Positions 27,311 through 27,603 of a DNA stretch of 28,080 nt are shown one piece after another. This DNA comes from a virus (lineage: Duplodnaviria > Heunggongvirae > Uroviricota > Caudoviricetes), in the IMG/VR virus record IMGVR_UViG_2565956624_000022, positions 1 to 28,080 of that record; one strand, 5' to 3'. The position numbers and the translations under genes are program-made. How positions within the stretch are numbered: position 1 is the first letter of the stretch; the number at the start of each line of letters is the position of its first letter. The notes below the pieces were generated by a model. The model was not told the DNA's origin and did no database searches. It saw only the letters and a list, made by a program, of their open reading frames with translations.

Positions 27311-27352
27311 CAAAAAATTAGCGCAAGAGGACAAAAAATCACCTTGCGCTAA
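27311..27352 (-). terminator. Lambda tI / sib-like terminator just inside the phage end
   Basis: On the - strand: TTAGCGCAAG-(15 nt loop)-CTTGCGCTAA perfect 10-bp stem followed by TTTTTTG; matches my recollection of lambda tI, and sits just left of the P arm as sib does. Confidence 0.65.
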
Positions 27353-27354
27353 TG

Positions 27355-27513
27355 CTCTGTTACAGGTCACTAATACTATCTAAGTAGTTGATTCATAGTG
27401 ACTGGATATGTTGTGTTTTGCAGTATTATACAGTCTATTTTTTAAGCCAAATGTATTGTAATGGATTGATATTAATGATTTTTGCTGTTTCTGGTTCAGC
27501 TTTTTTATACTAA
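27355..27513. other. attR: lambda-type P arm (27355-27498) plus 15-bp core GCTTTTTTATACTAA (27499-27513)
   Basis: CTGTTACAGGTCACTAATAC...AGTAGTTGATTCATAGTGACTG...GTTCAGCTTTTTTATACTAA tracks the lambda attP P arm with arm-type Int sites (GTCACTAAT, inverted CAGTCACTATGA); core followed by attB B'-like CTTGAGCGAAACGGGAAGG. Confidence 0.8.
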
Positions 27514-27603
27514 CTTGAGCGAAACGGGAAGGTAAAAAGACAAAAAGTTGTTTTTAATACCTTTAAGTGATACCAGATGGCATAGCGCCATCTGGCAGAG
27601 TGA

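Follow-up and report, generated by a model that had tools for sequence, protein, structure and literature searches.

The presented data make it highly probable that positions 27310-27603 of the window (the whole 28,080-nucleotide stretch of DNA analysed here) constitute the attR site (P-O-B') of a 45.9-kb mosaic lambdoid prophage inserted at attB-lambda between ybhC and ybhB, a reading that includes a lambda-type integrase (Int) and sib retroregulation. The anatomy of the sequence, the partner attL, the int and xis genes, the empty attB and the fold of the hairpin were observed directly. The biology itself, lambda site-specific recombination and sib retroregulation, is already known and has been textbook material since the 1980s.

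The 15-bp common core of lambda, GCTTTTTTATACTAA, is present as an exact match in a single copy in the window, at 27499-27513 on the + strand, where 0.12 matches would be expected by chance with two mismatches allowed, and it contains the 7-bp overlap TTTATAC (27504-27510). To its left lies TTCAG and to its right CTTGAGCGAAACGGGAAGG (27514-27532), the latter belonging to host ybhC-ybhB intergenic DNA from the bio side of attB (27514-27603), followed by the host gene ybhB (158 aa; 27604-28080, minus strand). All three elements that the initial annotation had combined into an attR at attB-lambda, namely the core, a lambda-like P arm on the left and host DNA with ybhB on the right, were thus found. 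However, the same annotation fixed the phage/host junction at 27513/27514, and this was too precise insofar that the sequence only brackets the crossover within the shared core, between 27498, the last phage-specific base (A in attP, T in attB), and 27514, the first host-specific base (C, compared to G in attP). The exact junction base is unreadable because the 15-bp core is common to attP and attB. Int swaps strands at both edges of the 7-bp overlap (PMC4880445), here 27504-27510. On the host side, just 3' of the ybhB stop codon, the conserved intergenic region also contains a hairpin with a perfect 9-bp stem, CCAGATGGC-ATAGC-GCCATCTGG (27573-27595), without a strong U-run on the ybhB strand.

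Alignment of the att/sib region with lambda, which had been proposed as a check, bears out the relationship. When 27156-27603 was used as blastn query against phage records, the lambda alignment comprised window 27244-27517 and lambda 27470-27742 (J02459), with 89% identity; the part up to the end of the core (27244-27513, lambda 27470-27738) was 89.3% identical, and the E-value was 7e-94. In the same search the attR-containing records DN1 and vB_EcoP-720R6 aligned on through the host side.

P-arm positions are given here as window coordinates, zero in the lambda standard being the central T of the core (window 27506), and the site definitions follow established knowledge of lambda attP. The P1 arm-type Int site, AGGTCACTAA (27364-27373, + strand), which is invariant in the family, the H1 IHF core, AATCAACTACTTAG on the bottom strand (27380-27393), which fits WATCAANNNNTTR, and the P2 arm-type Int site, CAGTCACTAT on the bottom strand (27395-27404), are all identical to lambda. 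Among the Xis sites, on the + strand, mismatches to lambda increase from X1 (27407-27419; 0/13) over X1.5 (27420-27426; 1/7) to X2 (27427-27439; 3/13). Overlapping X2 is the Fis site F, GTCTATTTTTTAAGC (27433-27447), which has two mismatches in 15 positions and retains the outer G and C and the A/T tract. The H2 IHF core, TATCAATCCATTA on the bottom strand (27459-27471), differs from lambda at 2 of 13 positions, both in the NNNN of WATCAANNNNTTR. At the core itself, the C core-type Int site, CAGCTTTTT (27497-27505, + strand), is identical to lambda, and the B' core-type site, CAAGTTAGT on the bottom strand (27509-27517), differs from lambda C' in one expected base and runs continuously into host DNA in genomes with an empty site. 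As a check on positions we used the published Fis-Xis segment, 53-100 bp from the crossover with F ~65 bp away (PMC7145599): the positions of X1, X1.5 and X2 agree with this segment, and the centre of F lies ~66 bp from the centre of the core. PMC4880445 describes what P2, X1-X1.5-X2, H2 and the core sites do, P2 being the arm site employed in excision (PMC7145599, PMC4880445).

As judged from the sequence, all lambda P-arm sites for Int, IHF, Xis and Fis are present at lambda spacing. The sole insertion or deletion relative to lambda in the P arm is one extra base in the tI loop, which leaves the spacing of the sites unchanged, and differences from lambda are fewer inside sites (6/84 positions) than outside them (16/59; Fisher p = 0.002). 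Identity to lambda is 96% over 27357-27407 compared to 78% over about 27408-27499, i.e. the core-proximal 92 bp. Given this lower core-proximal identity and the three mismatches in X2, the affinities for Xis, Fis and IHF could differ from those in lambda.

To place these differences in a wider context, we scanned IMG/VR for CAG-core and obtained 99 loci, 70 of them with a B' flank (attR), 12 attP and the rest in other contexts, and after filtering 67 distinct homologous P arms remained, lambda and the window included. From the core out to about -170, all 67 arms align without gaps. Near-invariance is seen for the tI hairpin (mean pairwise identity 98%), for P1, H1 and P2 (94.5% over the P1-H1-P2 stretch) and for X1. 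In the core-proximal 92 bp the mean is 83% and the lowest pairwise value 67%. Wherever window and lambda differ (23 positions), the family varies at that column as well. Such a pattern would be expected if purifying selection acts on the protein contacts and the helical phasing of a functional site. Where an attP locus shows both arms, the P' arm and the end of int are ~100% lambda-identical compared to ~76% for the core-proximal P arm, so that the asymmetry between the arms characterizes the family and is not peculiar to this prophage.

The initial annotation had also placed a sib-like terminator on the phage side of att, and a hairpin followed by a U-run is indeed found at 27310-27360 on the minus strand (RNA ACAGAGCAUUAGCGCAAGGUGAUUUUUUGUCCUCUUGCGCUAAUUUUUUGU). 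In RNA folding, the U-run is preceded by a 12-bp stem that is topped by a small apical stem, and lambda tI/sib folds into the same architecture; the differences are one extra U in the loop and a G.U pair of the stem that has become G-C. For both the window and lambda an outer 6-bp helix is predicted, in which the U-run pairs with an upstream ACAGAG, and this helix would form only in read-through RNA. The stem is nearly invariant across the 67 arms and is therefore uninformative for covariation. An Rfam scan of 26700-28080 at E <= 1 gave no match; we know of no curated Rfam family for lambda sib/tI. A consensus promoter and terminator scan, limited to loops of 8 nt and thus below the length of the tI loop, did not report tI.

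The hairpin lies on the int-coding strand, distal to attP, and is downstream of int only in the non-integrated phage. In lambda, transcripts ending in the U-run are stable and do not contain the outer helix. The prophage encodes, in lambda positions, an N-like antiterminator (PF25694, phrog_271) and a CII-like activator (phrog_191), and the pI region is contained in a block with 98.2% identity to lambda. Retroregulation by sib is described in PMC5300877, which cites Schindler & Echols 1981, and PMC5371410 cites Plunkett & Echols 1989. In lambda, N-antiterminated pL RNA completes the outer helix and is cut by RNase III, whereupon int is degraded from its 3' end. Lambda-style retroregulation of int is consequently a reasonable inference for this prophage, well supported by homology.

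The left end of the prophage could be located since the genome of E. coli FDAARGOS_1288 (NZ_CP070007.1) contains the entire window letter for letter, across the origin of the record. A second copy of the core is present 45,899 bp upstream in direct orientation, in the context CGTTGAAGCCT-core-GTTGGCATTATAAAAAAGC, also given as CGTTGAAGCCT-core-GTTGGCATTATAAAAAAGCATTGCTTATCAATTTGTTGCAACGAACAGGTCACTATCAGTCAAAATAAAATCATTATTTGATTTC, which corresponds to B-O-P' (attL). This attL was compared from window coordinate -18385 onward, and the 82 nt of its P' arm, together with the adjoining 300 nt that form the 3' end of int, show no difference from lambda. Just inside attL are genes for a 356-aa tyrosine recombinase and a 72-aa excisionase, with ybhC outside. 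The recombinase is identical to lambda Int at 352 of 356 residues (I18L, H164P, A245T and I248V), with the catalytic residues, read from the translated sequence, unchanged and H164P located in the linker between the core-binding and catalytic domains; the excisionase is identical to lambda Xis at 71 of 72 (G59S). Pfam matches were PF00589 and PF09003 (lambda arm-binding domain) for Int and PF07825 for Xis, and at the DNA level the 1,616 bp reaching from the core across int and xis show 98.2% identity to lambda. A matching attL next to an integrase gene, predicted from the right end, therefore exists 45,899 bp away beside int, xis and ybhC, and the integrase then expected at the unseen left end is of the lambda type, with four residues of 356 different from lambda Int. 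The lack of a second core or of a lambda-family integrase had been named as evidence against the reading; both are present.

An empty attB in related strains, for which PCR had been proposed, was reconstructed in silico by placing a single core between 300-bp host flanks taken from the ybhC and the ybhB side, and its natural counterpart is exact: other strains contain the virtual site between ybhC and ybhB over its full length (100% coverage) and at 100% identity. In the set of 5,426 complete E. coli genomes, attB-lambda is uninterrupted in 3,492, with the host DNA of 27514-27603 joined to the ybhC side. The tI-P-O-B' type of attR, counted as at least 80% of segment 27300-27603, is present in 1,921 of the 5,426 (35%, about one third), and the arrangement of gtrAB, attR and ybhB as in the window is present in 89 of them.

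On the phage side, the tI hairpin is directly followed downstream by gtrA (26793-27155, minus strand; 120 aa, PF04138), the first gene of a gtrA-gtrB-gtrC cassette for O-antigen modification (24407-27155) that is transcribed on the minus strand in the same direction as int, tI and ybhB. The gtrB product has 305 aa (PF00535), and the 491-aa multi-pass membrane protein of the cassette, which had no Pfam match, is presumably a serotype-specific GtrC-type transferase. In the gtrA leader (27156-27310) the consensus scan did not find a sigma-70 promoter. Dam/OxyR phase variation of gtr was considered and dropped, since the leader holds a single GATC (27210-27213), not two overlapping ones.

The leftmost homology to lambda beyond tI is at 27244-27309 (lambda 27470-27535), and homology of the SfV type extends to 27275. 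A segment of ~30 bp, 27244-27275 (ACACAAAGCTTTGCACTGGACTGCAAGG...), is consequently common to lambda (27470-27501), the prophage and the gtrA-attP spacer of SfV, and is the probable joint between modules and a candidate linker for exchange of gtr and att-int. Two observations concern the same region. The only terminator-like hairpin reported by the consensus scan is a weak one on the + strand at 27255-27276. In phage DN1 (MF374379.1) a + strand 'antisense RNA', copied from the annotation of BL21(DE3), is annotated at 1403-1564, immediately left of tI; it corresponds to lambda ~27372-27533 and window ~27146-27307, and the region contains the 27255-27276 hairpin.

Outside the att-int-xis module, the 45.9-kb prophage matches lambda only in a few early-region patches. 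Its virion genes, a contractile-tail-like set that includes a DUF3383 sheath-like protein and baseplate J/gp47, are unrelated to those of lambda, and a P22-like Arc/antirepressor region is present. By gene content the prophage is a mosaic lambdoid phage, not lambda. After a + strand tail-fibre assembly gene (23704-24108), which shares 75% identity with lambda tfa in a 135-bp stretch, comes (to ~24205) an oppositely oriented fragment of another tail-fibre assembly gene that RefSeq lists as a pseudogene, and the region ~23704-24205 could be a remnant of an invertible or exchanged segment.

Compared to lambda (J02459 27470-27742), the prophage thus shares the core, C, P1, H1, P2, X1 and the spacing of all sites, the ybhC/ybhB host site, the identical P' arm, Int and Xis (each 99% identical) and the tI/sib architecture. 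It differs in the core-proximal P arm (27407-27498, 78%), in the divergent spacers around H2, in a tI loop that is one U longer than in lambda, in the virion genes, and in the replacement by gtrABC of the DNA left of lambda 27470. HK106 belongs to the same attP family and matches window 27237-27517 at 92.2%. Like the window, HK106, HK629/HK630 and IMG/VR prophages at att-lambda combine a lambda-identical P' arm with a divergent core-proximal P arm, but HK106 and the other att-lambda phages each have their own core-proximal allele (mean pairwise 83%) and other cargo left of tI.

The layout gtrC-gtrB-gtrA-attP-int-xis, with gtr transcribed away from attP, is found in the Shigella phages SfI, SfII, SfIV and SfV, in which gtrA and its upstream spacer are 86% DNA-identical to the window; P22 has a similar arrangement of gtr and attP. 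SfV differs in that its attP is the 3' end of a tRNA gene, presumably the tRNA-Thr gene thrW, its integrase is unrelated, and there is no lambda-type tI/sib between attP and gtrA. Finally, EHEC prophages at ompW (PPompW_132418, LC567822.1 ~3000-3330, as well as other PPompW and Stx2a records) harbour the remains of a lambda-type attR in their interior, between a host-specificity gene and the effector genes espO, nleG and espM. This relic shares 80.5% identity with window 27303-27588; in it, a P arm is joined through a degenerate core, GGCTTTTTATACTAA, to ~75 bp of host DNA from the ybhB side, in which the hairpin downstream of ybhB is preserved. It has the look of a fossil left by an aberrant excision of the lambda-bio type and subsequently transferred to another phage.

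Several other interpretations of the right end were weighed against an active attR. Apart from the A/T richness of the core, nothing speaks for a chance 15-mer match or an assembly artefact, and this explanation, to which we assign practically no probability, is refuted by 270 bp of flanking lambda homology (E = 7e-94), the matching attL, the thousands of genomes with an exact empty site and the occurrence of this junction in 1,921 complete genomes. The prophage could instead be grounded (cryptic) and the attR a fossil no longer active in excision, as might be suspected from the annotated pseudogenes (a partial ead/Ea22-like gene, a partial hypothetical gene and the tail-fibre-assembly fragment) and from the divergence of X2 and the H2-proximal spacer from lambda. 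We find this very unlikely. The two att sites are undamaged and have identical, directly oriented cores, neither int nor xis is truncated and both are close to identical with their lambda counterparts, and genes for terminase, portal, capsid, tail, lysis and regulation are carried, while the differences in the P arm are all at family-variable positions and the spacing is exact.

The function of the hairpin can also be questioned, insofar that tI might mainly insulate gtrABC from incoming transcription, which would arrive from the ybhB/attR side in lysogens and from int in the phage form, rather than retroregulate int. The gtrA, gtrB and gtrC genes lie directly downstream of tI on the same strand, and in the prophage tI is 45.9 kb away from int, between ybhB (same strand) and gtrA, as a mainly insulating terminator would have it. 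Such a predominantly insulating role is nevertheless unlikely in our judgement, since the hairpin and the outer stem that forms only upon read-through are almost invariant in the family despite differing left flanks, and family homology breaks just left of the hairpin, which indicates that tI travels with the att-int module and not with gtr. The two roles are compatible, and insulating or gating gtr could add to retroregulation of int.

Returning to a functional lambda-type attR, we infer protein binding, excision competence and RNase III processing from the near-identity to lambda, and the following course of events can be proposed. Integration would have been performed by the lambda-type tyrosine integrase (99% identical to lambda Int), acting on the arm-type sites P1, P'1, P'2 and P'3 and the core-type sites C, C', B and B', with IHF bending the DNA at H1, H2 and H' and strand exchange at the edges of TTTATAC. 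The outcome would be the P arm and tI/sib at the right prophage end, and the P' arm with int/xis at the other. Excision would recombine attL with attR to attP, presumably with Xis on X1, X1.5 and X2, Fis on F, IHF on H2 and Int bridging P2 to B'. In the rebuilt attP, tI/sib would be placed downstream of int on the same strand, so that CII-activated pI transcripts would end at tI and be stable, whereas N-antiterminated pL transcripts would pass tI and form the longer hairpin, leading to cleavage by RNase III and decay back into int. Production of viable phage is not guaranteed, given the few annotated pseudogenes.

Across att-lambda phages, an abrupt change in the level of divergence coincides with the core and suggests a boundary of recombination and of modules there. 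The core-proximal P-arm alleles (roughly 75-85% identity) are each tied to different left-hand cargo, here gtrABC. We tentatively hypothesize that phages with a common lambda core, when they reside in the same host or superinfect it, undergo att x att exchange by Int and in this way repeatedly reassort genome halves at this boundary, a scenario that we regard as possible though not the probable one.

In conclusion, the right end has been set for a 45.9-kb gtrABC-carrying prophage that uses the lambda Int/Xis/att module, and the layout predicts that this prophage can excise. The comparison also yields a family-wide map of constrained P-arm positions, and evidence for an att-int module (tI to xis) that travels as a unit between otherwise unrelated phages. 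If att x att reassortment does take place, tI/sib would additionally gate read-through from int into the O-antigen modification operon.
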